From Candidatus Buchananbacteria bacterium (lineage in GTDB: Bacteria > Patescibacteriota > Patescibacteriia > 2-01-FULL-39-33), in NCBI GenBank assembly GCA_030650095.1, contig JAUSEE010000062.1:1-62160 (forward strand): a stretch of 62,160 nucleotides of DNA, given 5' to 3'. Numbering within the stretch: position 1 is the stretch's first letter; each line of letters begins with the position of its first letter. Of the stretch, positions 1,581 to 60,638 are shown in pieces. The notes beneath the pieces are model-generated. The model was not told where the DNA came from. It searched no databases and worked only from the letters and a program-made list of their open reading frames with translations. A program made the position numbers and the translations under genes.

Positions 1581-1616
1581 GGCTTATCACCTCCTTTTTT
1601 AAAGTGCCAACTAAAT

Positions 1617-3121: not shown

Positions 3122-3243
3122 TCAAATGGCATTTATCAACAGAAAAACCGCCCATGTTCTTGATATAATTATAGTTTTAAAGTATAATTGATTGTAAAAG
3201 TTCCTTGAAAAGACTTTATTAATTAATAAAAAGATAAAAAGAA

Positions 3244-3633
3244 ATGAAAATTTCTGCCTTACGCTTGCTTTACAGAAAGCAACAGGCGTGGGGACTGACA
3301 GCAAGTATTGACTTGTCTGGATGCGACCATGAACTCATTCAATCGCCGAAAGCGATAAAACATTTCGTAACAGAAATGATTACTTCGATTAACATGAAAA
3401 CCCATGGCCCAATGCACTTGGAAAGATTTGCCGAGGGACATTTGGAAGGTTATTCAGTAATGCAATTTCTGGAGACGTCGTCTCTAACAATTCACTTTGA
3501 TCATATGATCAAAGACCGGGCTTTTATTGATATTTTTAGCTGTAAGTTTTTCGACCCGATCAAAGCCGAGAAATTTTCCAAGGAGTATTTCAAAGCTAAA
3601 AAAGCCAGAACCAAAACACTCATCCGTTATTAA
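3244..3633 (+). CDS. S-adenosylmethionine decarboxylase-like (SpeH/class 1 pyruvoyl enzyme family) protein
   Basis: Small size (129 aa). LETSSLTIHFD resembles the E-S self-cleavage site followed by the IHT motif of class 1 AdoMetDC. Assigned by motif resemblance only. Confidence 0.55.
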   Translation: MKISALRLLYRKQQAWGLTASIDLSGCDHELIQSPKAIKHFVTEMITSINMKTHGPMHLERFAEGHLEGYSVMQFLETSSLTIHFDHMIKDRAFIDIFSCKFFDPIKAEKFSKEYFKAKKARTKTLIRY

Positions 3634-16044: not shown

Positions 16045-18888
16045 ATGAAAGACAAGATATCAATATCGGGCGCTCGAGTTAATAATCTAAAAAATATTAA
16101 CGTTGATATCCCCAAAAATAAATTGGTAGTCATCACTGGTTTATCCGGATCGGGCAAATCATCTTTGGCCTTTGATACGATTTATGCCGAGGGACAAAGG
16201 AGATATGCCGAGAGCTTATCGTCTTATGCCAAACAATTTTTGGATTTAATGGATAAGCCTGATGTTGATAATATAGACGGCTTGTCTCCGACTATCGCCA
16301 TTGATCAAAAATCCTCATCGGTCAATCCCCGTTCCACCGTCGGCACCATTACCGAAATTTATGATTATCTTAGATTGCTTTATGCCAAAGTGGGCCTTGT
16401 CCATTGCCACAAATGCGGCCAAGAAATCACCCGGCAAACCCCGGCTCAAATATTGGATAAAATAGCCGAACTGCCGCAAGGCACCAAAATCCAATTACTG
16501 GCTCCGGCGGTCTTAAACCAAAAAGGTTCGCATCTAAAACAAATAGAGGCTATCAACAGAGCCAACTACGAACTTCTGCGCATAGACGGCAGTTTTTACA
16601 ATATAAAAGAAGCCAAAGAATTAAAACTGGATAAAAATATCAGCCACACTATCGAAATACTGATAGATACCATCACTCTTTCGCCGGAGATAAAGAAAAA
16701 AACTAAAAGCGATTTGGATTGGCAAAGGCTGGAGAAAGCGGTCGCCTTATCTTTGGATTTCGGTAACGGCTTTTTAAACATATCCCTGCCGGAAAAAGAC
16801 CAGAACCTGCAATTTAACTTGTATTATGTCTGCCATAACTGCGGTGAAAATATCGCCGAAATAGAACCTCGGACTTTTTCTTTCAATTCTCCTTTCGGCG
16901 CTTGCGCCGATTGCCGAGGCTTGGGCATCAGATTGGTTCCGGATCAAGAACTTATAATTCCCAACAAAAGATTAACTTTAGCTGAGGGAGCGATCAAGCC
17001 TTGGTCCAGAAACTTCGCCTCTCAAAGCTCCAATTTCAAACTTTTGGAACAAGTCGCCAAAGAAAATAAATTCAGCCTGCATGTTCCGGTAAGCGAACTG
17101 CCGGCCAAAGCTTTGGCTATCTTATTCCACGGTTCAGCCGACAAAGTTTATGACGTTGAAGGCAGAAAAATAGAATTTGAAGGCTTGATAAAATTCATTG
17201 AAAACAAATACAAAGAAACCAAATCCGAATACCTGCAAAAAACTTTGGAGGATTACATGCGCACATCCACTTGCCCGGCCTGCGGCGGCCACCGCCTTAA
17301 ACCAGAAGCCTTGGCAGTTACCATAGAAGGCCGATCAATTGCCGATGTCAGTGATTTAGATATTAATAAATTAGCTGATTTTTTTGAGGAGCTGAATAAA
17401 ATATGGAAAGCCTCTTCCCGAGAAGGAAAAATATCAAAACAAATAATCAAAGAGATAACCAAAAAAATAAGCTTTTTGCAAAATGTGGGCTTGAATTATT
17501 TAACCTTAAGCCGCAGCGCCAATACTTTGGCCGGCGGTGAAGCCCAAAGAATCCGACTAGCCACCCAAATCGGCTCCGGTTTGGAATCGGTTACCTATAT
17601 TTTAGATGAACCATCCATCGGTCTTCATTCGCGCGATAATTCCAAATTAATCGATACGCTTAAAAAATTACGCGACAAAGGCAACTCGGTCATAATCGTC
17701 GAGCACGACGAGCAAATGATGGCCGCCGCCGATTATCTGATCGATGTCGGCCCGGGAGCCGGCAGTCTGGGCGGAGAAATTGTGTCTTGCGGCACATTTG
17801 AACAGATAAAAAAGGATAAGAAATCAATCACCGGACAATATTTATCAGGCCAAAAACAAATCAAAGTGCCAGCCACTTTCCGAGACGGCAATGGCAAATT
17901 CATAGAGATAAAAGGCGCCAGTGAATTTAATTTAAAAAATATCGACGTTAAAATTCCTCTGGGAAAACTGGTTTGCATTTCCGGAGTTTCCGGCAGCGGC
18001 AAATCCACTTTGATGAGCGAGATTTTAGCCAAAGCCTTGTCCAATAAGTTTTATCGCACCAAAGAATTGCCGGGCAAGCACAAAGAAATAAAAGGGTTGG
18101 AAAACTTAGACAAGGTTATTGATATCGACCAATCGCCTATCGGCCGAACACCCAGGTCCAATCCGGCCACCTACACCGGCGTTTTCACCTATATCCGCGA
18201 TCTCTACGCCAATTTAGCAGAAAGCAAAATCCGAGGCTTCAAGCAAGGCCATTTTAGCTTTAATGTCAAGGGCGGCGGCCGTTGCGAAACTTGTTCCGGC
18301 GACGGCATGGTGAAAATTGAAATGCAATTTTTGCCCGATGTTTATATTGAATGCGAAGAATGCCACGGGAAAAGATACAATTCTGATGCTCTAGAAATCC
18401 ATTACAGCGGCAAGAACATAGCTGATATTTTAGATATGTCAGTCTCGGAAGCCAGAAAATTCTTCTCCTTACACCAGCAAATAATTGATAAATTATCTAT
18501 TTTGGAAGAAGTTGGCTTGGGTTATTTAAAACTTGGCCAGAGCGCCACCACTTTGTCGGGCGGCGAAGCGCAAAGGGTTAAACTGGCCACCGAACTTTCA
18601 CGCCGGCCCACCGGCAAAACTCTATATATCCTGGATGAGCCGACAACCGGCCTGCATTTTGATGATGTCAAAAGACTGTTGCAAGTCTTAAACCAATTAG
18701 CCGACAAAGGCAATTCTGTTTTGATCATTGAGCATAATTTAGATGTGATAAAATGCGCCGACTGGGTAATTGATTTAGGCCCGGAAGGAGGCAGTGGCGG
18801 AGGCGAGATCGTCGCCGAAGGCACGCCGATAGAAATCAGCCGAGTTAAAAGAAGCTACACCGGCCAATATTTGAAAAAACTTTTTTAA
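16045..18888 (+). CDS. uvrA: Excinuclease ABC subunit A
   Basis: Two ABC ATPase modules ([23 protein letters not shown]; [10 protein letters not shown]), Zn-finger Cys clusters, LSGGEAQR signature twice. Confidence 0.97.
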
Positions 18889-19275: not shown

Positions 19276-19750
19276 CCTCTTGTTACTTTTTATTCTTGAA
19301 ACCTTTTGGCCGCAAAAGGTTTCCCCACTTTTTTAGAAAAAGTGGGACAAAAATCGCGACAATTGAAAGATTTATAGTCGAATTAAAAACTTCGCACCGC
19401 TAATCTTGTCATCCCGCACTTGTTGCGGGATCCCTGGGATCCCTGCCTACGCAGGGATGACAGTTCAAACATGCGGAAATTTGGCTCATCTACTATTCGC
19501 CAACATTCGCCTTCAGCTTGATTTTATGACGGCTCATCCATTAGGCTGGCAGATCTATCTATATATTATTAATAAAATAAGGCGAACACTAAAAAATATT
19601 GTGCTAATTTCTCTTACCAGCGAACGTTAAGAAGACAATATTCTGTCGCTGTTTTGATTATTGTCTTTAGTGAGCTGGGGAGAAATTGGCCATGATTTTT
19701 TACGTTCGCGAGCTTTTGGTTACTTTTGGCGGACCAAAAGTAACAAGAGG
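19276..19750. repeat. ~475-bp noncoding segment bounded by perfect 15-bp inverted repeats; a nest of palindromes that includes locus 2 of the structured module
   Basis: CCTCTTGTTACTTTT (19276-19290) is the exact reverse complement of AAAAGTAACAAGAGG (19736-19750). Inside are GTCATCCCGC...GCGGGAT-type palindromes and the module at 19591-19744. Confidence 0.55.
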
Positions 19751-19835: not shown

Positions 19836-19864
19836 TTGACAAAATCAAGCCTATTTTATAAAAT
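19836..19864 (+). promoter_or_regulatory. Sigma70 promoter
   Basis: TTGACA (19836-19841), 17-nt spacer, TAAAAT (19859-19864). Confidence 0.65.
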
Positions 19865-19923
19865 AGATTATTGAATCAGCACCTTTTAAACGGCATAATT
19901 CCAACACCAGGGAGATAAAAATC

Positions 19924-20640
19924 ATGCCCAGCCTTAAACAATGGTTTACAAAAAAAGACAAACCGGAACCGGCTAGTATTCATCCCAAAAATAAAACCGC
20001 CAGTCAAAAGCCAACTAGAACGGAAATAAAAACAGAGCCAAGGCCAATAGAGCCAAGGCCCAAAAGCCCCGGCTTGAATCGGGAAGAAGCTGAAGATTTG
20101 GAAAAATTAGAATTTGAAAGTTCAGGCATTCCTTATGAGCTAGTTTTAGCCGCCAGGGCCAAGAAATTTACGGACATTAATCCCCGAAAAATAATCGAAG
20201 ACACTGATCTTATTAATTCTAAGTTATTTGACTTGGGTCTTAATATTAAAATAAACTATTTGGAATGCTTTGAAGCCCAGCTATTTTATTTAAATTACCA
20301 AAGGGAAAGAAATGCCAAAGCAGTTGAAGGCATCAATTGGCCCAATCACAACTTGATACATATTATTGCTTGGCGCGAAGCGGAAAAAATGATCAGGCAA
20401 AAATTCCAACTAGCTGAAAATCCAGCCGTTGGGGAATTGGCCAAAAGATTTCAAATAGAAGTTCAGAATTTGTTTAAGATCCTTTGGGACAAATCCCTTG
20501 ATCACCAATTAAGGCAACGAGCCCAAATACGCCTAAGACAAGAGAGAAAACTGCCCAACAATGAGCTCCTTTTGGATGTGGATGTCATCGCCATGATGCA
20601 AAAAATCAAGGCCGAACAAACTGCCAAAGAAAAAAAATAA
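19924..20640 (+). CDS. Hypothetical protein, 238 aa (Pro/Lys-rich N-terminus), orphan
   Basis: ORF with SD gggag upstream and its own promoter. No recognisable family. Confidence 0.65.
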   Translation: MPSLKQWFTKKDKPEPASIHPKNKTASQKPTRTEIKTEPRPIEPRPKSPGLNREEAEDLEKLEFESSGIPYELVLAARAKKFTDINPRKIIEDTDLINSKLFDLGLNIKINYLECFEAQLFYLNYQRERNAKAVEGINWPNHNLIHIIAWREAEKMIRQKFQLAENPAVGELAKRFQIEVQNLFKILWDKSLDHQLRQRAQIRLRQERKLPNNELLLDVDVIAMMQKIKAEQTAKEKK

Positions 20641-36207: not shown

Positions 36208-39200
36208 TTAAATATTCTTTTTAAATCCGGTACCAGCTGGAATCAAGCGGCCGATAATAATATTTTCTTTCAGCCCTGATAAATCATCAGTCTTGCCGGT
36301 AATAGCGGCATTGATCAAAACTTTGGCTGTTTCTTGGAATGAAGCGGCAGCCAGCCAGCTTCTGGTGGAAAGAGAAACTTTGGTAATACCCAAAAGCAAA
36401 CGATCAAATTCAACTTCCTTTTTGCTTTCTTTCTTTAATCTCTTATTTTCATAAGCCACGTCGATATATTCAACTATTTCACCCGGCAAGAGATCACTGT
36501 CACCGGCCTCACGGATATAAACTTTGGAGAACATCTGGCGCACAATAACTTCAGCATGCTTGTCATTAAGTTTTTGGCCCTGGGAAGAATAAATATGCTG
36601 TATTTCACGCATAATATATTTTTGCGTAAACTCTTGTCCCTTAAGACGGAAAATTTCGTGCAAATCCAAACTGCCTTCGGTTAATTGATCGCCCGGCTCA
36701 ACGCTGTCGCCATCTTTTATCAAAAGAGAAATATGTCCTGGAATAATATATTCCTTAACACCCAGTTCTTTGCCGGAAACAGTCAATGAATTTTTATCTA
36801 CTTTAACTGTGCCGTCAACCTGGCTGGTTTCTTGTTCTTCGCCGTTGGTAAACAGGATTTGGCCTTTAACTATAGTGTCGCCGTTTTTAACTTCAATCTT
36901 CAAATCGGCTTTATTTTTAGGCAAAGGAATCTTTTTAATCAATTCATTATCATAACTTATCTGCAAAACTCTTTCTCTGGATGAAGTAACCAAAACCTTG
37001 CCTTCGGTATTTTTTATTTCCCGCTGGCCTTGAGTAATCTTAACCTGGCCTTTTATATCCGCCACAATAGCCTTGGCTTTGGGCGTTCTGGTTTCAAAAA
37101 TTTCTTCCACCCGAGGCAGACCTTGGGTGATATCGCCTTCGGACGCCACACCTCCGGTGTGAAAGGTTCTCATAGTCAACTGAGTGCCAGGTTCGCCCAC
37201 GCTTTGAGCGGCAATAATGCCAACAGCGGTGCCTTCTTTTACCAGTTTATTGTAACTTAGATCATAGCCGTAGCATTTTTGGCAAATGCCTTTAATGGTT
37301 TTGCAAGACAAAACGGATCTGATTCTGAGGCTGTCTAAATCGGCTTTTCTTAATTCGTCGGCATTTTCTTCGGTGATTAGTTGTCCAGCTTTAATCAAAA
37401 CCTTTTTATTTTTTGGATTAATAACATCTTCGGCTGGATAGCGTCCTATTAGCCTGTCCACCAAAGCTTCCCCCATGGTTTCACTTTCCACTTTGGTTAA
37501 TTCCAAACCTTCTTTGTCGCCGCAATCTTCTTCTGAAACAATCACATCTTGTGCCACATCAACCAATCTTCTGGTTAGATAGCCGGCAGATGATGTTCTA
37601 AGAGCCGTATCGGTTAAGCCTTTTCTGGCGCCATGAGTGGAAATAAAGAATTCCAAGACGTCAAAGCCTTTTTTAAAGTTGCTTTTAACCGGCAATTCAA
37701 TAACTTCATAAGAAGGGTTAACCACTGGGCCTTTCATACCAATCATCTGGTTTAATTGTCCCCAAGTTCCACGAGCGCCGGAATCAATCATGGCCCTGAT
37801 GGAATTGCCTTCTTTTAAAATGCCTTGGACATTGCCTAAAATATTATTATTAACCTTCAACCACAGCTCAACGATTTTATCATGCCTTTCATCTTCGGTT
37901 AAAAGACCCATTTGGTATTGCTGTTCTATTTCATCCAATTTAACATTACCCTCTTCAATTAATTTTTCCCGGTTAGGAATTTCACCCAAATCATCCATGC
38001 CGATTGATTGAGCGGAAACGGTTAAATATTTAAAAGCTATTTCTTTTATGGAATCAAGGGTGCTAACTGTTACCTCTGGTCCGAATTTGTATAAAATTTG
38101 TCCCAAGAGTTTGGAAAGGTATTTCTTAGTGACTCTTTCGCCTATAAATTCCAATTCACTGGGTAAAATAGAATTAAAGATAATCAAACCAATAGTAGCT
38201 ATTTGGAGTTCCATCTTCTTAACTTTCAAACCTTTTTTAAGCATCAGCACCTTAATTTGATCATGAAGCGTGATTATGCCTTTTTCATAAGCCAACATAG
38301 CCTCATTAACAGACGAATAAGTCTTGGGCTTCTCTTTTTCATTTATCGTAGTCAAATAATAACAGCCCAAAACGATGTCTTGGTTAGGCGTAACAATCGG
38401 CCGGCCGTCTGAAGGCTTAAGCAGATTCTTGGAAGAAAGCATTATTTCAGCCGCTTCTTTCCTGGCGCCTTCGGTTAACGGCACATGAACAGCCATTTGG
38501 TCGCCGTCAAAATCAGCGTTAAAAGCGCTACAAACCAAAGGATGAATCCTGATAGCTTTGCCTTCGGTTAAAATCGGTTTGAAAGCCTGGATGCCTAAAC
38601 GGTGAAGGGTGGGAGCGCGATTAAGCAAAACATAAGCTCCGGTCACCACTTCTTCCAAAAGATCCCAGATTTCATCATGTCCGGCTTCAATATACCTATT
38701 GGCGCTTCTGACGTTGTGGACAATGCCTCTTTTAATCAATTTAGAAATAATAAACGGTTTGAATAATTCCAAAGCCATTATTTTAGGAATACCGCATTGA
38801 TCCAAATGCAATTCGGGACCAACCACGATAACGCTTCGTCCTGAATAATCGATTCTTTTACCCAGCAAATTCTGCCTGAATCGTCCTTGTTTGCCTTTCA
38901 ACATGTCGGCAATGGACTTCAGCATTCTCTTTTGCCCGGTAGAAGCCACAACGGTTTTGCCATGCCTGGCATTATTATCAATCAAAGCATCAACCGCTTC
39001 TAGCAGCATTCTTTTCTCGTTTCTGGTAATAATTTCCGGAGCGTTCAATTCCTGAAGCTGTTTCAAACGATTGTTTCGGTTGATTACCCGGCGGTACAAA
39101 TCATTCAAATCAGAAGTGGCAAAGCGTCCGCCATCTAACGGCACCATAGGCCTTAGATCCGGCGGGATTATCGGCACAACAGATAACACCATCCACTCCG

Positions 39201-40092
39201 GCCTGATGCTGTTTTTAATCAAGTGATTGAAAAATTTAATTCTTCTGATTAATTTATCCCTTTTAGCGCCGGTTGATTTTTCCAGTTCTTTATCCAAACC
39301 GGCAATGGTTTTGGCGATATCAATTTTTTCCAAGAGATTTCTGATAGCTTCGGCTCCGATGCCGGCTTCAAAAATATGTCCGTATTTTAAAGACAAATCA
39401 TGGAAGGTATGTTCGGAAATTATCTTGAGAGGCTTCAATTCTTTTAATTCCATTTCGGCTACCGCTAAAGTATTTTCCAGTTCGGTTAATTTTTCTTCTT
39501 TTTGGGTGATAAGCTTGCCCACTTGTCCTTCGGCTGTCGCTGTGCCCTTTTCGGTCAGCTGTTTGATGCGATTATCAAAATCGCTTTCAATTTGCTTGCG
39601 GTATTGCTTGTATTCGGCTTTAAGTTGGGCCAAGGTTTCTATCTTTAAATCATCATTAACCGTGATAATGATAAAGTCAGCAAAATAAATCACTTTCTCC
39701 AGATTCTGGATAGACATATCCAAAGCCAAACCGATGCGTGAAGGCACGCCTCTTAAAAACCAAATATGGGAAACCGGCACAGACAAATCTATATGTCCCA
39801 TTCGTTCGCGCCTAACCACGGCTCTGGTAACTTCCACTCCGCACTTGTCGCAAATTATGCCTTTGTACCTTATTTTTTTGTACTTGCCACAATAGCATTC
39901 CCAATCCTTGACCGGACCGAAAATCTTTTCGCAAAACAGGCCGTCCTTTTCGGGCTTTTGAGTTCTGTAATTTATAGTCTCGGGACGCAAAACTTCGCCA
40001 TAAGACCAATCATGGATATTATCAGGAGAAGCTAAACGCAATTTGATTGAAGTAAAATCTTCTGCGATTCTGTGTTCCTGGGTATTTAGCAT
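36208..40092 (-). CDS. rpoC: DNA-directed RNA polymerase subunit beta'
   Basis: NADFDGDQM catalytic motif, Zn-binding Cys near the N-terminus, full collinearity. Confidence 0.98.
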
Positions 40093-44928: not shown

Positions 44929-46365
44929 CTATTTAGCCCTCTCAAAGAGAGATTCCAAATAAAGGATGGCTTGATAAGCTAAGTAAGAATTATCTTCTGA
45001 CTTCATTAAATATCTGATGAATTCATAATCCCGACCCAGGGTGATAAGCGGTTTTTCAACATAGCCGGTGCGCGCTTGCAACTGCCTTAAATCAATATTG
45101 GCCGCCAGAGCGTTACATAAGCATTTACGCCCAATAGCTTCATCTGGCAATCCGCCCTTGGAGATAAATATGTCTATTGGCTCAGCCGGACAACGATAGC
45201 CGATTGAACCGTCTTTCTCCAAAAACAACTGACGCAGATGGCCGATATTGCAAACTCGCGGACGATTGCCATATTCCTCATCGCCAGACAATGATCCTGG
45301 CAGATGAGCCACTTTAAAAGGAAAACCGGTTGGCGAGGCTAAAATATCGTCATAAACTTTCAGCTCACCTCTAAAAGCCAGTCGACGCAGTTCGCGCTTG
45401 TAAATTTCATTAAAGCCCGATTCACTAGATAAGGCAAAAATAGTTCCGGCCTGAATACCGACAGCTCCTGATTCAAAGACATTATGAATGCCCTCAAGGC
45501 TGACAAAAGATCCGGCCAGCCAAAAAGGCAAACCTAAATCCCTGATTCTATTTAAATCCGGCTCGTCGCGCGGTCCGTATATTATCAGGCCATCGCTGCC
45601 CATTTCCACTTTGCCCCGAGGCGGAGCATTGTGGCCGCCGGCATCTTTCCTTTCAATAATCCAGCCGTAAATCTTGCCTGGCAACCTTTTAAGCATGCTT
45701 ATGGCCAGAATATGCGAAGTGATAATTGGCACGAACTTGGGACGCTTAAGTGATTTTATTTTGTCGCCCACAATGCTTTTGGGATCAAAAACCATTTGGT
45801 AAATGTCGCCTTTTTTGGCGCCGAGGACATCAAGCTGATAAATAGCGGTTTCCATTTTTTCTAAACTGTCTAAGACCGATGGTATCTGCATGGGGATGCC
45901 GGCTCCGATTAAAATATAATCAACGCCGGCCAGCATGCAGCCAAAAATATTATAAACCATAGGCATGGGCAGTTTCGTCATCAAATTAACAGCGACCAGT
46001 CCATTATGAGATTCTTTAGCCAGCCAAACTTGGGCGAAACTGGCGCAAACAGTCAGTTCAATTAAAGGCGTTGAGGGCTTGATGGTAAACATGGGCACAT
46101 TAGAAAATCCGGCCTCGGCCGATTTGCCATTTTCAATAAAATATTTTCTTAAAACGCGCTCGGCCATTTCCGGAATCGGAAAATGGCTTAAGGCTCGACG
46201 CCAATCGCCCTTTAAATCTCCCAACTGCAAATTGCGAACCATAACCAGTTCGGCGCAAGTGCCGGAAACAGTTCCTACATAGCCCAGGGACGAAACAGTT
46301 CGAGCCAGGTTATAAGTAGAAACTCCGATACCCATGCCGCCTTGTATAATCTTGGGATCAGACAT
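44929..46365 (-). CDS. Nitronate monooxygenase / FabK-like FMN-dependent oxidoreductase family protein
   Basis: N-terminal IIQGGMGIGVS...LARTVSSLGYVGTVSG is typical of the NMO/enoyl-reductase II fold. Confidence 0.7.
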   Translation of the reverse strand: MSDPKIIQGGMGIGVSTYNLARTVSSLGYVGTVSGTCAELVMVRNLQLGDLKGDWRRALSHFPIPEMAERVLRKYFIENGKSAEAGFSNVPMFTIKPSTPLIELTVCASFAQVWLAKESHNGLVAVNLMTKLPMPMVYNIFGCMLAGVDYILIGAGIPMQIPSVLDSLEKMETAIYQLDVLGAKKGDIYQMVFDPKSIVGDKIKSLKRPKFVPIITSHILAISMLKRLPGKIYGWIIERKDAGGHNAPPRGKVEMGSDGLIIYGPRDEPDLNRIRDLGLPFWLAGSFVSLEGIHNVFESGAVGIQAGTIFALSSESGFNEIYKRELRRLAFRGELKVYDDILASPTGFPFKVAHLPGSLSGDEEYGNRPRVCNIGHLRQLFLEKDGSIGYRCPAEPIDIFISKGGLPDEAIGRKCLCNALAANIDLRQLQARTGYVEKPLITLGRDYEFIRYLMKSEDNSYLAYQAILYLESLFERAK

Positions 46366-46516
46366 TTAAATCACCTCCTTTGATGGATTGTTATTTTGTA
46401 ATGTTCGATAGAAGAATACTACTTAAAAGAAGGAAAAAAGTCAATCGCTAAAAAAGCCTAAAACAAATTGTTTTAGGCTTTAATGATTTATCCGGAATAA
46501 TGTTTTATCTTAGAAA

Positions 46517-50466: not shown

Positions 50467-51309
50467 TTAGTGGTTATCCAAGTATCCATCTTCCAAATAT
50501 TTGGCAATACGATCAGAATCAAGGTTGAGTTGCTCAACAATATCCCGGCTAATGCCCATAAAATCGGGATCATTTTCTATAGCATATACAATTTCTGATT
50601 TGGTACGGTAATTAATCATAATTTTAATTACCGACCAATGATCGGCCCAAACAGCTGTGGCAACCTTAAGAAGTTCCGGCAAAGTATAGCCATGCTGAAA
50701 ATATTCTAAGATAAAATTTTTACCATAGCCGGCGCCGTCAAGAGCTCTGATTTTTCGCTCCAAATTCCAATCAGAAATAGCTGAAATAATATCCTCTATG
50801 GGAAAATGCAACCGCAGAAGTTCAATAATCACAAAATCATTGCAACCGGTAATTGAGTAAGCCTCCATTGTTTCAGCTATATCACAATCACCATATACCA
50901 AAGATCGAACAATCCTCTGTGGTTCCCAATTACCGGCTTTCATCCTGGCGACAAGCGATGGCAGATCTTTATATAAATTAAAAATGAGTATTACTTTTTG
51001 CTCATCCTCAAATAATGATCCGTCTAAAGCCTGCCAAACCCGGTTGATATCCCAGGAAGCGAAACCAATGAATTCTAATATACTCTCAAAATCATAATCA
51101 TAATCCAAATTCAAAAGTTCTAGCATCTGCCTATCGCTTAATCCAGCCTCGATAAGCACTGGAAAAATGTCGGCTATATTAGCTAATTTATCATAAATAC
51201 AGACATGAAGTGAACTAATTAGCTCATTATGAACAAAGGGTTTTTCAGCCAAAAGCCGTCCGGCATTAACTAAATATTTTAAATATCTGGATCTTTCTTC
51301 GGCAGTCAT
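50467..51309 (-). CDS. Hypothetical protein, 280 aa, helical-repeat appearance, orphan
   Basis: ORF with SD aaaggag upstream. Recurrent short helical blocks (e.g. GLSDRQMLELL, GYTLPELLKVA). No family recognised. Confidence 0.65.
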   Translation of the reverse strand: MTAEERSRYLKYLVNAGRLLAEKPFVHNELISSLHVCIYDKLANIADIFPVLIEAGLSDRQMLELLNLDYDYDFESILEFIGFASWDINRVWQALDGSLFEDEQKVILIFNLYKDLPSLVARMKAGNWEPQRIVRSLVYGDCDIAETMEAYSITGCNDFVIIELLRLHFPIEDIISAISDWNLERKIRALDGAGYGKNFILEYFQHGYTLPELLKVATAVWADHWSVIKIMINYRTKSEIVYAIENDPDFMGISRDIVEQLNLDSDRIAKYLEDGYLDNH

Positions 51310-51384
51310 GACTATCTCCTTTCAGATAGAAGTTTTAAAGGTGCTTACAGCCAAATTGCCATAAATAAAGGCAGCTGTCAATAT

Positions 51385-51423
51385 AAAAACAAATCAGCAC
51401 AGTTTGCCTAAAACCGTGCTGAT
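51385..51423 (-). terminator. Intrinsic terminator of ileS
   Basis: Minus strand: aucagcac-...-gugcugau (8-bp stem) followed by uuuguuuuu. Confidence 0.6.
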
Positions 51424-51446
51424 TGGATATTAAAAATAAAAATTAT

Positions 51447-54400
51447 TTATATTTTTTCCAGTTGAATCTTAATTTCTTCATTATTAATTTTAGATTGAGC
51501 GCCCTCGTTATCTGATTTGATGAATTCCGTAGTGAGAGTGGCTTGCTTTAATTCCTCTAACCATCTTTTATCAGTTAAAATATTTATAACCATCTGACTG
51601 TCACTCTGCCACAAGACTTTTATTTTATCCCCGATAGTCAAACCATTATCTTTCCTAAGGCTGTTAATTGTCCTAACAAGTTCACGCAGCAAGCCTTCGG
51701 CTTTCAACTCCTCTGTCAGTTCTGTGTCCAGTTCCACTTTTATTTCGGCTCCTTTTTTAAATTCCACTTCTTTAACATTCACTTCATCGGCTATTAATTC
51801 TGCTAATTCTTTTGGCAAATCATAACCGGTAACTTTTAATTGGGCTAGCGGTTGTCTTATTTTTATGGCTTTTTCCGCCCGAGCCGCCAGACCCATTTCC
51901 ACAATTTTTCTGACACTGTCCATCTGCTCGATTATTTTGTGATCAGCTTTTTCGGCCTTAGGCCATTTATCCAAATGAACTGATTCTAATTTTCCTTTAG
52001 CCGCCAGATAAACTGATTCCGAGAGAAAGGGCATAAACGGCGCCATTATTTTAGACATTTCTATTAAGACAAAGTTAAAAGTGGAAAGAGCTTGTTTTTT
52101 GTCTTTCTCATCCCCCGATTTAAAGCGATCACGGCTGCGCCTTAGCCACCAAGTTGAGAACTCATCCACAAAATACTGTATCGGCCGAACTGCCTTAGAC
52201 AACTGGTAGCTGTCCAACTCTTTAGTGACGTCATGAGCCAATTTATTAAACTTAGCTATCAGCCATTTGTCCAATATATTCTTGGAATTATCGGCTGGCA
52301 CGATAGAATCGTCGGCATAGAGCTGATAAAATTTTACGATGTTACTAGTTAACATCACCACTTTCTGGAAAGCTTCTTTCACCCCGGTTTCTGAAAAATT
52401 AAAATTTTCCGCCGACATAACCGGAGAAGAAAGCAGATAAAACCGCAGGGCGTCAGCGCCGTATTTCTCAATAATCAAATCAGGCTCCGGATAATTCTTT
52501 AAGCGCTTGCTCATTTTAGTGCCATCTTCGGCTAAAACAATGCCATTGGCAACAACATTTAAAAAAGCCGGCTTATCAAACAAGGCTGTAGCCAAAATCA
52601 TCAAAGTGTAAAACCAACCGCGCGTTTGATCCACGCCTTCGGCGATAAAATCGGCCGGAAAAGTTTTCTGGAACTTGTCTTTATTTTCAAAAGGATAATG
52701 CAATTGGGCGTAGGGCATGGAACCGGATTCAAACCAGCAATCCAAAACCTCTGGTATCCTTTTCATTGGGCTGGAGCATTTGGGACAAGGCAATAAAATA
52801 GAATCCACCACGTCCTTATGGATATCAACTGTCTTTTCGGCCAACTTTACAGTATCGGTATTCTCCAGCATCGGCGAATCAAAAATATTGGCTGGCTTTA
52901 AACCGGCTAATTTTCCGGCCAGTATCCTAATATTATCGCCATGTGAAACCAAGAGGACATTCTTACCAGCATGATTTTTATTTATCTCTTTCCAAAGGCT
53001 AAACATCCTAGCCTCTACTTGAGCCGAACTTTCTCCCTGGGGAAATTGAAAAGTAGATTTTCTTTGCCATTCTTTTAATAATTCTGCGGCTGTTTCATCA
53101 CTATCAGACTGGCCTTGCAACTCGCCAGGATCAACTTCATTTAATCTATCATCAAAGGCCAATTTTATTTTAAGCTCATCGGCCATGATTTCGGCCGTTT
53201 GCTTGGACCTCAACACTTCCGAAGAAATGATTAAATAAATATTCAAATCTTTTAATTTTTTAGCTGCTTGTTTGGCTTGTTTTACGCCTTTTTCGGTCAA
53301 AGGATATTTATCCTTATCATTGCTAAAAACATTGAGTATGTTTTTTTCTGATTCGCCATGACGCATGGCATAGACATTGATCTCATCGATTTTAGATTTA
53401 TCCAATTCCTCGATTGAACCGATAACTTTTATCTCGCCGCAATCGCTACAGCGCCAAACTGGCAGGGGCGTGCCCCAAAACCTGGAACGAGAAATCGCCC
53501 AATCACGCGCATCTTCCAGCCAATGGCCAAAGCGGCCGAATTTTAAATGCTCCGGCACCCAATTAACCTGGCTGTTGTTTTTAATCAGATCTTTTTTAAT
53601 AGCGGTCACTTTCACAAACCAAGAAGAGGTGGCGTAATTTAAAAGAGGTGTATCGCAACGCCAGCAATGAGGATAACTATGCTCGTATTTTTCCTTGGAA
53701 AACAATAATTCCTTGTTTGATAAATATTTGATTATTTCCACATCGGTTTTCTGGGTATCTTCTTTGGGTTTAACTTCCAAGCCGGCAAAACCGTCGCCGA
53801 TATCGGATTTAATCCGGCCGGTTTCATCAACATGCTGGATCAAGGGAAGATTTTTTTCGCTCCCCAAGGCCATATCCTCTTCGCCGAAAGCCGGAGCAAT
53901 ATGGACTACGCCCACGCCATCGGTCGTGGAAACAAAATCAGCCGAGACAATCGTATAAAGATTTTCCTTGTACTCTATGTCCTTGTCTAAAAAATAATCA
54001 AACAGGGGTTTGTATTTTTTGCCTACTAATTCTTGGCCCTTGAATTCAGAAATAATTTTATACTCTTGGTCTTTAAAAACTTTCTCAACTAAATCCTTGG
54101 CCAATATAAATATTTCTTCCTGATTTTTGTGATTTTGTGTTTTGGTATCTTTGTAAATAACTTTAACATAATCAATATCCTCCCCCACAGCCAAGGCCAC
54201 ATTGCCAATAAGCGTCCAAGGCGTGGTAGTCCAAGCCAAAACATAAGTGCCCGGCTCGTCTTGCAACTCAAATTTGGCTGTCACGGCCAGATCTTTGACA
54301 TCTCTGTAGCCTTGAGTGACTTCGAAATTAGACAAGGTGGTTTCGCATCTGGGGCAAATGTGCATGGATTTATAGCCTTCATAAATCAAGCCTTTATCAA

Positions 54401-54893
54401 AAAGCTGTTTGAAGACCCACCAAATGCTTTCCATATACCAGGGCTCCATAGTTTTGTAATCCGCCTCCATGTCCACCCAACGACCCAGGCGGGGAATGGT
54501 TTTTTTCCAAATATCGGCATACCTCAAAACACTTAGGCGACAACTGTTATTAAACTTGCTGATGCCCATGGCTTCGATATCCTTGCGGCTTTTTAAATCA
54601 AGTTCCTGCTCAATCAGATTTTCTATCGGCAAGCCGTGGCAATCCCAGCCCCAACGGCGTTCTACATATTTGCCTTTCATGGTTTGATACCGCGGTACAA
54701 CATCCTTAATGAAACTTGAGGGAAAATGGCCATAGTGAGGCGTGCCAGTGGCAAAAGGCGGACCATCATAGAAACTGAAAACCTCGCCATTTCTGGTGGC
54801 GGCTAAGCTTTTTTCGAATATTTTATTATCCTCCCATGATTTTTGGATTTCCTTTTCTTTCTCGATCAAGGGGTTATTTTTCGCATCAGTCAT
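51447..54893 (-). CDS. ileS: Isoleucyl-tRNA synthetase with an in-frame histidine-phosphatase-like domain insertion
   Basis: HIGH-type PHYGH and KMSKR motifs, CP1 editing domain. Start placed at the Met of MTDAKNN (54893); the 10 upstream codons lie inside repeat copy E. The insert contains RHGES ... SHG motifs. Confidence 0.93.
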   Translation of the reverse strand: MTDAKNNPLIEKEKEIQKSWEDNKIFEKSLAATRNGEVFSFYDGPPFATGTPHYGHFPSSFIKDVVPRYQTMKGKYVERRWGWDCHGLPIENLIEQELDLKSRKDIEAMGISKFNNSCRLSVLRYADIWKKTIPRLGRWVDMEADYKTMEPWYMESIWWVFKQLFDKGLIYEGYKSMHICPRCETTLSNFEVTQGYRDVKDLAVTAKFELQDEPGTYVLAWTTTPWTLIGNVALAVGEDIDYVKVIYKDTKTQNHKNQEEIFILAKDLVEKVFKDQEYKIISEFKGQELVGKKYKPLFDYFLDKDIEYKENLYTIVSADFVSTTDGVGVVHIAPAFGEEDMALGSEKNLPLIQHVDETGRIKSDIGDGFAGLEVKPKEDTQKTDVEIIKYLSNKELLFSKEKYEHSYPHCWRCDTPLLNYATSSWFVKVTAIKKDLIKNNSQVNWVPEHLKFGRFGHWLEDARDWAISRSRFWGTPLPVWRCSDCGEIKVIGSIEELDKSKIDEINVYAMRHGESEKNILNVFSNDKDKYPLTEKGVKQAKQAAKKLKDLNIYLIISSEVLRSKQTAEIMADELKIKLAFDDRLNEVDPGELQGQSDSDETAAELLKEWQRKSTFQFPQGESSAQVEARMFSLWKEINKNHAGKNVLLVSHGDNIRILAGKLAGLKPANIFDSPMLENTDTVKLAEKTVDIHKDVVDSILLPCPKCSSPMKRIPEVLDCWFESGSMPYAQLHYPFENKDKFQKTFPADFIAEGVDQTRGWFYTLMILATALFDKPAFLNVVANGIVLAEDGTKMSKRLKNYPEPDLIIEKYGADALRFYLLSSPVMSAENFNFSETGVKEAFQKVVMLTSNIVKFYQLYADDSIVPADNSKNILDKWLIAKFNKLAHDVTKELDSYQLSKAVRPIQYFVDEFSTWWLRRSRDRFKSGDEKDKKQALSTFNFVLIEMSKIMAPFMPFLSESVYLAAKGKLESVHLDKWPKAEKADHKIIEQMDSVRKIVEMGLAARAEKAIKIRQPLAQLKVTGYDLPKELAELIADEVNVKEVEFKKGAEIKVELDTELTEELKAEGLLRELVRTINSLRKDNGLTIGDKIKVLWQSDSQMVINILTDKRWLEELKQATLTTEFIKSDNEGAQSKINNEEIKIQLEKI

Positions 54894-54897
54894 ATTT

Positions 54898-55038
54898 TTA
54901 TAATGTTGCTGCCCGAGTACCACTGGCTTTTAAGCCAGGGGATGAAGGGCAGTGTGAGGAAAAATACGTCGGCGGAGCCGACACCTTCCATTTGAAACCG
55001 CCCAGATACCCCGCTCTTTAGAGCGGGGGCGGGTTCAT
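54898..55038 (-). repeat. Structured repeat family, copy E (forward orientation on the minus strand, 4 nt upstream of the ileS ATG)
   Basis: Full-length copy. Its 3' end ...gcagcaacattataaaaat abuts the ileS start codon. Confidence 0.85.
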
Positions 55039-55221
55039 TATCTATTATATCACAGTTATTATGGCATTTTTTGATTCACCCTGTTAAATAAGATTTAAAT
55101 ATATTTAAATCTTATTTTTAAATTTTAGTTGTTTAAAAATTAAATCTTTTAAACGATGGAATATAAACGAAATGCTTATATTCGTATTATATAAAATTTA
55201 AAAATTATTAAACAGGGCAAA

Positions 55222-55487
55222 TAAAAAACCGACATGCCACCAAGAGCCTTACAAGGCGGTACCATCTCGGGATTATACTTGTTTTAAAAGCTGTAATGGG
55301 CTAACCCAGTCGGTTCTAACGGCAGATTTGCTTTCTTCCGACAGCTGCTTTGATGATAGTCAAAGTTTATCCCGTTAAAATACTCAGTAATTGAATTTTA
55401 ATCATTAAGGCTGAAACAGGATTGCCCCCAAATATAAACAATTAATAATATTATTTAACTTGGGGTCATATGCTTTTTATAAATTGT
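55222..55487 (-). promoter_or_regulatory. T-box leader (Ile) upstream of ileS
   Basis: Minus strand: ccgaga-UGGUACC-gcc-uuguaa-ggc-ucuugg forms a textbook antiterminator with the 7-nt bulge UGGUACC, followed by a U6 run. Candidate specifier AUC-A is in the hairpin loop cuuuga-CUAUCA-ucaaag (55365-55348). Promoter is TTGACT-17-TAAAGT (55522-55494). Confidence 0.65.
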
Positions 55488-55599
55488 ATTGTCACTTTAC
55501 TAGATTACGGTATTTTAGTCAACTGCCATTAAGACGCTATTTTAATTTACTAAGTATTATAAAAAACGGGCTTAACCCGCTTCTTATTTTAAAATTATT

Positions 55600-55794
55600 C
55601 TATTCTTCCCAGCTGATGGCCTGCACCGGACAAGCGACTATGGATTCATCAACTTTATCCTTATGGAGAGCGTAATCAGCTTCCTTGACCACGGCAATAA
55701 TCCTGTCGTCCTTCTCTTCCATTTTAAAAACTTCCGGACAAATTGATTCGCAAGTACCGCAACCGATACAGCTGTCGTTGACGATTGGCTTCAT
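55600..55794 (-). CDS. Ferredoxin (4Fe-4S)
   Basis: CIGCGTCESICP plus a distal C..CP motif; 64 aa. Confidence 0.85.
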   Translation of the reverse strand: MKPIVNDSCIGCGTCESICPEVFKMEEKDDRIIAVVKEADYALHKDKVDESIVACPVQAISWEE

Positions 55795-55835
55795 ATTTAA
55801 AAAAGTAATTATTTATTAATTCTTGATCACTGATT

Positions 55836-56240
55836 TTATTTATCATTGGAAGGAAAAATTTTATTTATCTTATCAACTAATTTAGACGGCGTATAATCGG
55901 ATTTTATCAAGTAATCTTTGGCGCCCAATTTCATGGCTTTTTCTATTTCATCTTTCTGGGTTAAATTGCTGAAAATGTAAACCAATGTCTGGCTGACAGA
56001 TTTATCGCCTTTTATTTCCCTTAAAACCTCATAACCGTCTTTTTTAGGAATGATTAAATCCAAAAGAACCAAATCCGGCTTTAGAGATTTAACCAGATCC
56101 AAAGCATTAGATCCGTCTTCTATGACCTCAACTTCAAAACCAGCCCTTTTTAGAGCTGTACTGAATAATTCCACCAGTTCCGGCTCATCTTCAATTAGAA
56201 GTATTTTATATTTTCTAGCCATAGGCTTATTATACACCAA
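55836..56240 (-). CDS. Response regulator, receiver domain only (CheY-like)
   Basis: ILLIEDE, DLVLLDLIIPKKDG and a conserved Lys region. An alternative start at 56222 (MARKYK) is likely. Confidence 0.85.
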   Translation of the reverse strand: MVYNKPMARKYKILLIEDEPELVELFSTALKRAGFEVEVIEDGSNALDLVKSLKPDLVLLDLIIPKKDGYEVLREIKGDKSVSQTLVYIFSNLTQKDEIEKAMKLGAKDYLIKSDYTPSKLVDKINKIFPSNDK

Positions 56241-56257
56241 TTAATTATACCTATAAA

Positions 56258-57988
56258 TTACATTTGATCAAGTGGCTCGATGCCCAAAATGGACAGGCCG
56301 TTAACCAAAACCTTCCGGACAGAATCAACTAAGATCAATCTGGCCTCTTTGATATCCTTGGACGAATTGATAATGGGAAACTTCTGATAAAAAGAAGAGA
56401 AAAGTCTAGCCAAATCAAACAAATATTTAGCGATTATGCTGGGATCGTAATTTTTAGACGATTCGGCCACTATTTCCGGCCAGCTGGCCAGCTGCAACAT
56501 GATTTCTTTTTCCAAATCGCTGTTTATTTTAGCATAATCAATTTTGGCCAAACCGCTGAATTTAGCTTTTTTAAGCACGCTGTTGATACGGCTGCAAGTG
56601 TATTGGATATAAGGGCCGCTAAAGCCGTCAAAGCTGAGTGATTCATCAATGTCAAAAGTTATGATGCTGTTATTGCCCACCTTTAACATATTGAATTTAA
56701 TGGCTGACAAGGCTATCTTGCGGGAAACCTCTTCGGTCTTTTTTTCCGGCCACTCCTGATGCCTGGTTTTGGTTTCAATTTTAGCCCGGCCAAAGACAGA
56801 ATTATAAAAATCTTTGAATAAAACCACATTGCCCTCTCGAGAAGCCATGGCTCCATCTTTTAGGGTGACGAATTCATAGGGTATGTGGACCATCTTCTTT
56901 TTAAAACCGATGACTTCCATGGTTTTAAAAAACTGCTGCAGATAAAAGCTTTGCCGGCTGTCTACTACCACAATGCTTTCGTCGATTTTAAATTTTTCAA
57001 ATTTTAATTTGGCCAAAGCCAATTCTTTGGTGGAATAAAGCGATGAGCCGTCTGACTTTAAAAGCAGGAATTTTTTTAAATCGTACTTTTCCAAATCAAT
57101 GATAACCGCTCCTTCTGATTTTTCGGCTACACCTTTTTTAAGCAGATCTGCCACTATTTTTTTGCCTGGCTTTTCCACTTCGCTTTCATAAAAAAAATGA
57201 TCAAATTGAATGCCTAGTATTTTATAAATCTTATCAAAATCGTCCAAACTCCACTTTCTGGTCTTTTTCCATAAGTCCAGCCACTTCTTACTCTCTCCGC
57301 CGAAAGATTTTGGATCTCCGCTTTCCAATTTCTGCAAAATATCATCAACTTCTTTTTTGTAATCGGGATTGGCTTCCAGTTTTTTAGAGCCATTAGTGTA
57401 GACCTGTCCCAAAAACTTGCCTTTGTCCTCGGGCAAATCTTTGTCTTTATAAAATTTATCATAAGCCCAAAGGCATTTGGCCACATGAGCCCCCACATCG
57501 CCGATATAATTAACCGGCATAACCTTGTTGCCGGAGAATCTAAGCAAATTAACCAAGCTGTTGCCTAAAATGGCATTCCTCAAATGGCCGATATGGAATT
57601 CTTTATGGGTGTTGGGCTGGGAAAATTCCAGCATTATTTTCTGATGATTGATTTTTAATCGGCCATAATCATTTTTAGCTTTTTGTATTTCGCTAATGAC
57701 ACTTTTGCCTAAAACAGCCGGATCAATAAAAAAATTCAAGTAAGGCCCGACATTTTTCAGGGCTTTGATTATGCCGCCCGGATTTATTTTGGCCGATAAT
57801 TCCTCAGCTACCTTAGTGGGAGATTTTCTGGTTAATTTTGACAGATAAAAACAAGGTACAGCCAAATCGCCCAAAGTGGAATCGGGCGGCACCACTATTT
57901 CTAATTTATCAATATCAAAATCAGGCTCAATGGCTTGGGCGATCAAATCTAATATTTGTTTTTTGATTTTTAAAATTGTGTATTCCAT
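56258..57988 (-). CDS. argS: Arginyl-tRNA synthetase
   Basis: Class I HIGH motif (FHIGHLRN), ArgRS N-terminal and DALR anticodon-binding regions. Confidence 0.93.
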   Translation of the reverse strand: MEYTILKIKKQILDLIAQAIEPDFDIDKLEIVVPPDSTLGDLAVPCFYLSKLTRKSPTKVAEELSAKINPGGIIKALKNVGPYLNFFIDPAVLGKSVISEIQKAKNDYGRLKINHQKIMLEFSQPNTHKEFHIGHLRNAILGNSLVNLLRFSGNKVMPVNYIGDVGAHVAKCLWAYDKFYKDKDLPEDKGKFLGQVYTNGSKKLEANPDYKKEVDDILQKLESGDPKSFGGESKKWLDLWKKTRKWSLDDFDKIYKILGIQFDHFFYESEVEKPGKKIVADLLKKGVAEKSEGAVIIDLEKYDLKKFLLLKSDGSSLYSTKELALAKLKFEKFKIDESIVVVDSRQSFYLQQFFKTMEVIGFKKKMVHIPYEFVTLKDGAMASREGNVVLFKDFYNSVFGRAKIETKTRHQEWPEKKTEEVSRKIALSAIKFNMLKVGNNSIITFDIDESLSFDGFSGPYIQYTCSRINSVLKKAKFSGLAKIDYAKINSDLEKEIMLQLASWPEIVAESSKNYDPSIIAKYLFDLARLFSSFYQKFPIINSSKDIKEARLILVDSVRKVLVNGLSILGIEPLDQM

Positions 57989-58075
57989 TAGCCTTATTCT
58001 AGCTTAAAATCACCCAATAATCAAACAAAAAACCGTTTCAGCTAAGAAACGGTTGCTACTCTCCGGCAAAAATAT

Positions 58076-58459
58076 TCACTTTGGCAAAGTGACTGGGTTT
58101 AAATCAACTTTCTTTACAGGAATATTTTTTGAACCGACATTACCCTCTTGTGCCATTAAAAACTTGCAAAGTTCATGCCGTCCTCGGCTACAAGTGGTTC
58201 TAATTAAAAGAAGCAAATTATCCTTGGCGTGCTGTTCAATCCAACTATCATGATCAAGCAAGAGTTGGATATCATGCAAACTTACTTTCAAAAGCTGGGC
58301 TAATTCCAAATGATGCAAACCATGTTCTTTAATGAAGGTCTTAAAATCCACCAAGCCGGTAGCGCTCGGGGCCTTAGGTCCGGCCTTGATGACTTCATTA
58401 AATCCGTCAATTTCCCGGCGAAACAAGATATACTTTATTTCTACTGCTTTTTCACTCAT
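58076..58459 (-). CDS. Hypothetical protein, 127 aa, orphan (possible HTH segment)
   Basis: SD aaaggagg upstream, own promoter (TTGACA 58557-58552, TGaTAAAAA 58536-58528), terminator at about 58030-58060. Confidence 0.6.
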   Translation of the reverse strand: MSEKAVEIKYILFRREIDGFNEVIKAGPKAPSATGLVDFKTFIKEHGLHHLELAQLLKVSLHDIQLLLDHDSWIEQHAKDNLLLLIRTTCSRGRHELCKFLMAQEGNVGSKNIPVKKVDLNPVTLPK

Positions 58460-58563
58460 GGACGCCTCCTTTTGGGGGTATAAAAGTGCTGATAATATGA
58501 ATGTACGCCCATATTCTTAATAGGATATTTTTATCATAAAAGACTGATTCTTGTCAAGACAGT

Positions 58564-58592
58564 TTGACAATACCAGCTGGCTGGATTACAAT
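58564..58592 (+). promoter_or_regulatory. Sigma70 promoter of the thrS leader
   Basis: TTGACA (58564-58569), 17-nt spacer, TACAAT (58587-58592). Back-to-back with the divergent -35 box inside the palindrome TTGTCAAgacagtTTGACAA. Confidence 0.7.
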
Positions 58593-58598
58593 TTTAAA

Positions 58599-58786
58599 TG
58601 TAAACGATTGAGGCGCCCACCAAACGCCTGCTCTAACTTTAGAGTCATAAAAATTAATTTATGCCAAGTTTTTTACCAAAGAGCCTGCCACTTAAGACAG
58701 GAAATGCGGGTGGAACCGCGGAAGGAGAATAAAACCTTTCGTCCCGAACATATTTTTAGGTATGTTTAGGAGGAAAGGTTTTTTTA
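58599..58786 (+). promoter_or_regulatory. T-box riboswitch (Thr) upstream of thrS
   Basis: T-box core gcggg-UGGAACC-gcgg (58706-58721). Antiterminator helices cggg/cccg and gcggaagg/ccuuucgu. Competing terminator aaaccuuucgucc...ggaggaaagguuu followed by U7 (to 58785). Candidate specifier ACC-A is in the hairpin loop ggcg-cccACCAaa-cgcc (58612-58628). Confidence 0.85.
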
Positions 58787-58806
58787 ATAAAAAATAATTT
58801 AATTGT

Positions 58807-60531: not shown

Positions 60532-60549
60532 ATTATTGGGTTTAAAAAA

Positions 60550-60573
60550 CTCGGGTTAAAACCCGAGTTTTTT
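60550..60573 (+). terminator. Intrinsic terminator of thrS
   Basis: Hairpin ctcgggtt-aaa-acccgag followed by T6. Confidence 0.75.
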
Positions 60574-60576
60574 GTC

Positions 60577-60605
60577 TTGACAATTTACTCTTTATATGAT
60601 AAGAA
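60577..60605 (+). promoter_or_regulatory. Sigma70 promoter (extended -10 type)
   Basis: TTGACA (60577-60582), 17-nt spacer ending in TGA, TAAGAA (60600-60605). Confidence 0.5.
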
Positions 60606-60638
60606 TTAATTTATCAGCACCTTACAAGGAGAAGAAAA

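Follow-up and report, generated by a model that had tools for sequence, protein, structure and literature searches.

Two kinds of described leader elements lie closest to the one analysed here. Leaders that sequester the Shine-Dalgarno (SD) sequence include anti-SD hairpins and thermometers of the fourU type.

The second kind is BoxA. In rRNA operons the element reads UGCUCUUUAACA in E. coli and AUGAUCUUUGAAA in B. subtilis, where it is bound by BsNusB (PMC13753749). In the account of Stagno et al. (PMC3177189), the NusB-NusE complex recognises 8 nt and accepts no transversion at positions 2, 5 or 6; the base at position 6 differs between Aquifex (C) and E. coli (U), and U8 occupies a pocket where NusB and NusE meet. 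The gamma-proteobacterial consensus is GYTCTTTAANA, and a gamma-proteobacterial genome carries 0-7 such sites within 50 nt of starts (PMC5725501). The same report, by Baniulyte et al. (2017), describes mRNA-leader BoxA elements under the control of the Nus factor complex for suhB in E. coli and Salmonella and for a ParE-like toxin gene in Citrobacter koseri; in E. coli suhB, BoxA lies 6 nt from the SD, and it is mainly translation that is repressed, followed by Rho termination (PMC5725501). A literature search found no paper treating BoxA or NusB jointly with Patescibacteria, Candidate Phyla Radiation or Parcubacteria.

The window, by which we mean the whole stretch of 62,160 nucleotides, belongs to a genome (G000) of 1,159,094 bases in 62 contigs with 39% G+C. 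Patescibacteria have tiny genomes with few recognisable regulators and, to our knowledge, almost nothing is known about how their expression is controlled. Crude ORF calls on G000 gave 1,121 ORFs and 814 upstream regions of 30-150 nt each, and strict 11-mer counts were made over 74 kb of upstream and 934 kb of coding sequence. Relatives included three congeners (G001, G002 and G003) and a member of another genus (G017). Rfam searches at gathering thresholds found nothing beyond one tRNA in the whole window. The leader motif described below is real, strand-specific and conserved, and is predicted to lie in the transcript. On the best-supported reading it would be a new sequence version of an already described element, unusually numerous and attached to genes of an unusual kind, in a lineage where Rho was not found.

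The leader motif in the window and in the genome

The first-pass annotation of this DNA had proposed that four unrelated genes share 11-13 nt of leader sequence, each behind its own TTGACA promoter. All four instances are present, and each lies downstream of a TTGACA hexamer: ATCAGCACCTTTT at 19875-19887 (plus strand; TTGACA at 19836-19841), ATCAGCACCTT at 60613-60623 (plus strand; TTGACA at 60577-60582), ATCAGCACTTTT at 58493-58482 (minus strand; TTGACA at 58557-58552) and AAGCACCTTT at 51346-51337 (minus strand; TTGACA at 51381-51376). The features of these leaders and the further sites in the window are:

19836..19864, plus strand: promoter-like TTGACA, 17-nt spacer and TAAAAT, read from sequence
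19879..19889, plus strand: BoxA-like leader motif GCACCTTTTAA, overlapping the 19875-19887 instance
19924-20640: gene for a 238-aa protein without a Pfam family, downstream of GCACCTTTTAA
60577..60606, plus strand: promoter-like TTGACA / AAGAAT upstream of the HD gene
60617..60627, plus strand: BoxA-like leader motif GCACCTTACAA, before the HD_4 hydrolase gene (60639-61244)
58479..58489, minus strand: core GCACTTT followed by TATA (3' AA missing), before the gene for a 127-aa protein (58076-58459)
51334..51344, minus strand: BoxA-like leader motif GCACCTTTAAA, before the gene for a 280-aa protein without a Pfam family (50467-51309)
1597..1607, minus strand: BoxA-like motif GCACTTTAAAA in a 36-nt intercistronic spacer, absent from the first-pass annotation
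46396..46406, minus strand: looser variant GAACATTACAA, of the rRNA-leader type GAAC, before a 478-aa gene (44929-46365)
3200..3210, plus strand: looser variant GTTCCTTGAAA, which has T at BoxA position 4 as in the canonical form, ahead of an AdoMet decarboxylase-like gene (3244-3633)
38243..38253, plus strand: fourth exact ATCAGCACCTT, antisense in rpoC (36208-40092, minus strand), also newly noted
51392..51424, minus strand: ileS intrinsic terminator, stem with ATCAGCAC/GTGCTGAT, 14 pairs, loop of 5, T-run

The motif GCACCTTTTAA starts 14 nt past the -10 box TAAAAT. In the HD_4 leader the final two A of GCACCTTACAA overlap the SD AAGGAG (60626-60631). A search for public relatives of the HD_4 hydrolase returned a sole locus, at 73% identity; its contig is titled uncultured gammaproteobacterium, which is at odds with the ~1-Mb genome and the 16S sequence. 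The 127-aa protein (58076-58459) has no Pfam family, and the core before its gene lies about 40 nt past the best -10 box, unlike the other instances. No TTGACA was found upstream of GCACTTTAAAA, which separates a TyrRS/TrpRS-type gene (1617-2567) from an acyltransferase gene (873-1580). Two of the listed sites carry less weight: GTTCCTTGAAA is a weak candidate because no clear SD follows it, and the copy within rpoC is judged to be due to chance because it lies outside any leader and is followed by AATT.

The window contains the 11-mer ATCAGCACYTT 4 times, whereas 100 shuffles averaged 0.05 copies and none of them reached 4; three of the matches are in leaders and the fourth is the antisense copy in rpoC. 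Only 5 exact copies exist in the whole genome, 4 of them in the window, so that the 11-mer as first drawn is a local feature. The recurrent leader sequence is nonetheless real, and it is its boundaries that need correction: the true unit is shifted 3' and consists of GYACYTT followed by W-N-A-A. In an alignment of 44 sites, the positions 5' of the G are uninformative save for an A at -1 (24/44), and A stands at +9 in 36/44 and at +10 in 35/44. By chance, some 4-nt prefix would be common to 3 or more of the 46 sites with P = 0.64; TTTT and AACA are each common to 3 sites, as ATCA is, and the ATCA prefix is compatible with chance.

TTGACA, the SD and the extended -10 box head the list of 7-mers enriched upstream of genes, followed by CGCACCT, GTACTTT, TAGCACT and similar 7-mers. 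The core G[CT]AC[CT]TT occurs 50 times in the upstream regions of G000, and AGCACYTT 17 times upstream against 3.0 expected from its genome frequency. A single-substitution profile gave G-H-W-C-Y-T-T-W-N-A-A, or G-[C/T/A]-[A/T]-C-[C/T]-T-T-[A/T]-N-A-A; the commonest form is GCAC/GUAC-YUU-W-N-AA, and GCACCUUACAA is an example from an mRNA leader. A genome-wide comparison of leaders with coding sequence had been suggested as a check on the motif, and it favours the leaders: GYACYTTWNAA has 28 sense and 2 antisense matches upstream, against 4 sense and 14 antisense matches in coding sequence. A PWM with a threshold of at least 9 bits likewise gave 54 matches in the upstream sense strand and 11 in its reverse complement, compared with 3 in a coding-sense sample, 7 in a coding-antisense sample and 3 in shuffled upstream sequence. 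The exact 11-mer lies within about 50 nt of the start in 25 genes, and the looser GHACHTTDNAA within 100 nt of the start in 47.

The first-pass annotation had also remarked that part of the motif recurs in the stem of the ileS terminator, perhaps by coincidence. ATCAGCAC has 6 matches in the window against 1.10 expected, two of which are the arms of that terminator; the structure is an ordinary 14-pair terminator outside the motif family, and the 8-mer in common is treated as coincidence. The ileS product (1158 aa; 51447-54923, minus strand) contains a full His_Phos_1 domain (residues 517-694, E 2e-40), inserted within the class I catalytic domain of the isoleucyl-tRNA synthetase.

Conservation and resemblance to BoxA

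Orthologues of the four genes supplied 9 leaders from the three congeners and G017. All nine carry G-H-A-C-H-T-T before the SD, in the forms GCACCTT, GTACCTT, GAACCTT, GCACTTT, GCACATT and GTACTTT, and none carries the ATCA prefix. The leaders of the 238-aa gene have GCACCTT (G002) and GTACCTT (G001); those of the HD_4 gene GCACCTT (G002), GTACCTT (G001) and GAACCTT (G017); those of the 127-aa gene GCACTTT (G002), GCACATT (G001) and GTACCTT (G003); and that of the 280-aa gene GTACTTT (G002). Identity to G000 is 0.87 in the core compared with 0.47 in the 25-nt 5' flank; on this comparison, the motif core is under selection.

Four forms of the motif, each followed by AGGAG within 25 nt, were counted in 31 genomes (G000 and 30 relatives), with the reversed pattern as control:

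GCACYTTWNAA: 34 matches in 14/31 genomes (11 in G000; 2, 4 and 3 in the congeners), reversed control 0
GTACYTTWNAA: 27 matches in 13/31 genomes, reversed control 9
GTTCYTTWNAA (canonical form): 48 matches in 19/31 genomes, reversed control 14
CGACYTTWNAA (scrambled): 6 matches in 4/31 genomes, reversed control 19

The matches before AGGAG fall mostly within the window's own family, with 0-3 in class-level relatives.

The motif has the same layout as GYTCTTTAANA, which is a gamma-proteobacterial consensus, and agrees with it at 10 of 11 pattern positions (PMC5725501). It also has the bases required at the positions that PMC3177189 reports as critical for BoxA, namely G2, C5, a pyrimidine at position 6, U7 and U8. 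In the substitution profile these are represented by G2 in 28/36, C5 in 28/37, U7 in 28/28 and U8 in 28/32, with 0-7 in reverse-complement controls, and by T19/C9/A3/G0 at position 6. Position 4 is the exception: the mRNA sites have A 28, T 10, C 1 and G 1, where the published consensus (PMC5725501), like every other published BoxA consulted, has U.

An A at position 4 is also found in the leader of the G000 23S gene, which contains GAACTTTGAAAA at -119. A single base separates this element from the B. subtilis rrn BoxA GAUCUUUGAAA, the sequence bound by BsNusB; written as GAACUUUGAAAA, about 119 nt before the 23S gene, it likewise differs from the B. subtilis core at one base (PMC13753749). 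G-H-A-C-H-T-T occurs in 10/15 family 23S leaders, mostly as GAACTTTGACAA at -88 to -171. Among class-level 23S leaders, G..C.TT.A.AA occurs in 20/29, with A (15), T (4) or C (1) at position 4. A PWM built from protein-gene leaders only, with the rRNA parts of contigs excluded, had the rRNA element as its top match in 12 of 14 family 23S leaders (the G041 leader, which contains N, was left out); the top matches were individually significant in 6 leaders (p < 0.05 vs shuffles), and the G000 element scored 12.4 bits (p = 0.02). As far as the 23S leaders are concerned, the lineage's rRNA leaders contain the same element. No match to the BoxA pattern was found in the two 16S leaders searched (G000 and G017). 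The 16S-tRNA spacer of G017 contains a canonical-looking BoxA, GTTCTTTTAGAA, followed by an SD and an open reading frame, which indicates a protein gene inside this rRNA spacer.

The mRNA motif and the rRNA-operon BoxA have G2, A4, C5, Y6, U7, U8 and A11-A12 in common. They differ at position 3, which is mostly C or U in the mRNA copies and A in the rRNA copies, and at position 9, where the mRNA sites have A 18, T 10 and G 0 and the BoxA of family 23S leaders almost always has G. Two class-level genomes (G026 and G029) have a GCAC-type rRNA BoxA, yet few or no mRNA sites, and thus provide no co-variation test in favour of BoxA. Because the motif fits both the published consensus and the lineage's own 23S-leader BoxA, we suggest that these sites are BoxA-like NusB/S10-binding sites in mRNA leaders, forming an unusually large set, and put the probability of this reading at about 0.5. 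Of the earlier proposals, it is the fallback of a common protein-binding site that the evidence favours.

Compared with the suhB-type mRNA BoxA (PMC5725501), the sites have the same 11-nt layout (GYTCTTTAANA there, GYACYTTWNAA here), a similar leader position, no more than 50 nt from the start codon and close to the SD (6 nt away in suhB, 2-25 nt in most sites here), and an element in common with the organism's own rRNA leaders. They differ in having A rather than U at position 4 in most sites, and in number: this 1.16-Mb genome has 25 exact sites at most about 50 nt from a start, vs 0-7 (PMC5725501). The targets are different as well, since orphan or accessory genes make up most of them, in place of Nus-factor or translation genes. 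Finally, Rho completes suhB repression in E. coli (PMC5725501), whereas its RNA-binding domain (PF07497) was found in 0/34 genomes of this family. Dozens of BoxA targets per genome would be unprecedented when set against the few given in PMC5725501.

Alternative explanations

A single-stranded RNA site for some other trans-acting factor, its likeness to BoxA being convergent or coincidental, is rather unlikely in our judgment and is the strongest of the alternatives. Such a factor might be a different RNA-binding protein, an endoribonuclease with its processing site, or a small RNA. The conserved and oriented leader element stands independent of BoxA, and a different factor would accommodate positions 3 and 9, where the mRNA copies disagree with the rRNA copies. 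The leaders are weakly structured (mean predicted MFE -4.7 kcal/mol) and no more stable than shuffles, so that the motif is predicted to be available as a single strand, which suits a site of this kind. No candidate factor emerged, however, and the fit at the positions critical for BoxA would be left unexplained. The complement AARGTRC in G000 intergenic regions is mostly found on the leaders' own opposite strands, with no recurrent hairpin-loop carrier, and the complete G017 16S contains no 7-nt complement of the motif, only the 6-mers AAGTAC and AGGTGC. No complementary sRNA is evident in the intergenic regions of G000.

That the motif is a DNA operator just past the start site, at which a transcription factor blocks RNA polymerase, appears improbable. 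The core lies downstream of the -10 box in 20/20 upstream regions having both a strong consensus promoter and the core, with a gap of 6-31 nt, which is a usual place for repressor sites, and upstream regions with the motif more often have a strong promoter (odds ratio 2.8, p = 0.0016). An operator would not account for the nearly complete orientation bias (28 vs 2), the variable distance to the -10 box, or the same element in rRNA leaders about 100 nt before 23S, far from promoters. Moreover, 26/46 motif leaders have no strong consensus promoter; these include the 36-nt intercistronic spacer at 1597-1607, and on contig C25 several motif sites directly follow hairpins. The 20/20 count and the intercistronic site bear out the proposal that the motif is part of the transcript and not a promoter element. 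The base composition downstream of 185 promoters, taken position by position, is flat, which argues against a general start-site feature; from the promoter, spacer and position data together, the element therefore belongs to a subset of transcripts. This transcript placement is a prediction from sequence; among sequencing runs, positions 51001-61000 of the window were found in one DNA run, which may be the source of the assembly, and in no RNA run. The end of the core lies 2-60 nt from the SD (mostly 2-16 nt), and its G lies 22-94 nt upstream of the start codon.

Slightly less probable again is the explanation originally offered, in which the motif mimics the 3' tail of 16S rRNA and sequesters each gene's own SD. 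CYUU can pair with AAGG, and like known SD-sequestering leaders these have a CYUU pyrimidine run upstream of AAGGAG that allows a short helix in some cases; a few leaders have motif-SD helices of 4-7 bp (e.g. C11:78814, 0.66, and C34:2177, 0.72). We folded 40 motif leaders in native form and with the letters of the motif shuffled. The SD is slightly more often paired at all in native leaders (0.54 vs 0.48, p = 0.004), a small effect in favour of an anti-SD role. The pairing of SD with motif, by contrast, shows no excess over shuffles (0.20 native vs 0.16 shuffled, p = 0.18, n = 40), and native leaders are less stable than shuffled ones (mean MFE -4.67 vs -5.00 kcal/mol, p = 0.04). In the four leaders for which pairing had been proposed, its probability is 0.00, 0.00, 0.00 and 0.48, the last with an MFE of -1.4 kcal/mol. 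The conserved positions, unlike those of SD-sequestering leaders, ignore complementarity to the SD: the best-kept A (position 4) stands where a U is needed opposite an A of AAGGAG, and G2 and the 3' AA have no role in the helix and are left unexplained. In addition, no more than 4 nt separate the motif from the SD at 5/45 sites.

The likeness to the 16S tail fares no better. ATCAGCACCTTT matches the G017 16S tail ATCACCTCCTTT at 10/12 positions, but this match depends on the unconserved ATCA, which is in 0/9 orthologous leaders; with the G017 16S 3' end, GGATCACCTCCTTT, the conserved core has only CACCU or CCUU in common. The 16S 3' end of G000 itself, with its anti-SD, is unassembled. The G000 16S rRNA gene (C62:18640-19475) ends after about 800 nt at the contig end, and its last 100 bases or so are no longer 16S-like and may represent an insertion or intron. 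A sigma-54 -24 box, an RNase E-type site, a cold-shock-protein site and a phage epsilon-type enhancer were also considered and set aside.

Carrier genes, Nus factors and possible role

Of the 45 motif genes scanned (one further motif gene was left out), 25 lack a Pfam family at E 1e-5 or better, compared with 5/36 other genes of the window (odds ratio 7.75, p = 1.6e-4), a control that is drawn from this window alone and contains two genes with looser motif variants. These figures agree with the initial impression that most genes carrying the motif are orphan or accessory. Annotated carriers include thymidine kinase, dCMP deaminase and three nucleoside 2-deoxyribosyltransferase-like proteins, as well as an HD_4 hydrolase, a DHH phosphoesterase and a histidine phosphatase, and give hints of nucleotide salvage. 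No ribosomal-protein or Nus-factor genes were found among the carriers.

NusB (PF01029) was identified in 31 of the 33 other family genomes, including all three congeners. In G000, neither the Pfam model nor a tblastn search using the NusB protein of G001 detected nusB. The G001 gene lies between rpmF and rnc, downstream of an RluD-like gene, and tblastn with the rpmF, nusB, rnc and RluD-like genes of G001 gave no match in G000. Since the neighbours of nusB are missing too, an assembly gap is indicated, and the absence of nusB from G000, which is rated 98% complete, probably reflects an unassembled locus. The S10 gene, rpsJ, is present in G000. Neither rpsJ in G000 nor nusB in three relatives is preceded by a BoxA-like site; thus the Nus-factor autoregulation typical of gamma-proteobacteria is not seen.

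If the sites are indeed BoxA, G-H-W-C-Y-U-U-W-N-A-A would be the lineage's version of this single-stranded RNA signal for the NusB-NusE(S10) heterodimer, present here also in mRNA leaders as a lineage-wide element of the 5' untranslated region. It would lie 2-60 nt upstream of the SD in some 25-47 protein genes, of which the majority are orphan or accessory. NusB-S10 would bind the motif leaders and, by analogy with E. coli suhB, might lower translation initiation in step with the pool of free S10/NusB. On that analogy, repression of translation initiation is the likeliest effect. The family's genomes yielded no Rho, so whatever the effect, it would need to be Rho-independent. A broader and more tentative possibility, which we hold to be well short of even, is that this Rho-less family of ultra-small Patescibacteria has co-opted NusB-S10/BoxA as a global post-transcriptional governor. 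The A4 variant, in the leaders of some 3-6% of genes, mostly orphan or accessory and including nucleotide-salvage enzymes, might then tie translation to the free S10 pool, that is, to the state of ribosome assembly.

Were this true, BoxA, regarded so far as serving rRNA and only a few mRNAs in each species, would be found in dozens of leaders of this 1.16-Mb genome and would offer cheap global control from ribosome-assembly parts, without Rho. It would also establish a form of BoxA, with A at position 4, that escapes the search patterns published so far, and would provide a sequence handle for finding co-regulated orphan genes in uncultured lineages.

Some observations concern other parts of the genome. 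A single 354-aa ORF (G000:C11:41413-42477) combines TruB pseudouridine synthase domains (7-171) with Sua5/YciO/YrdC (177-349). Between positions 19700 and 19820 of the window there are recurring short intergenic repeats of the type TCGGGATGACA / TCGCAATGACA, adjoining hairpins, and repeats of this type are also found upstream of the G000 23S gene and on contig C13 at about 16860-17000.
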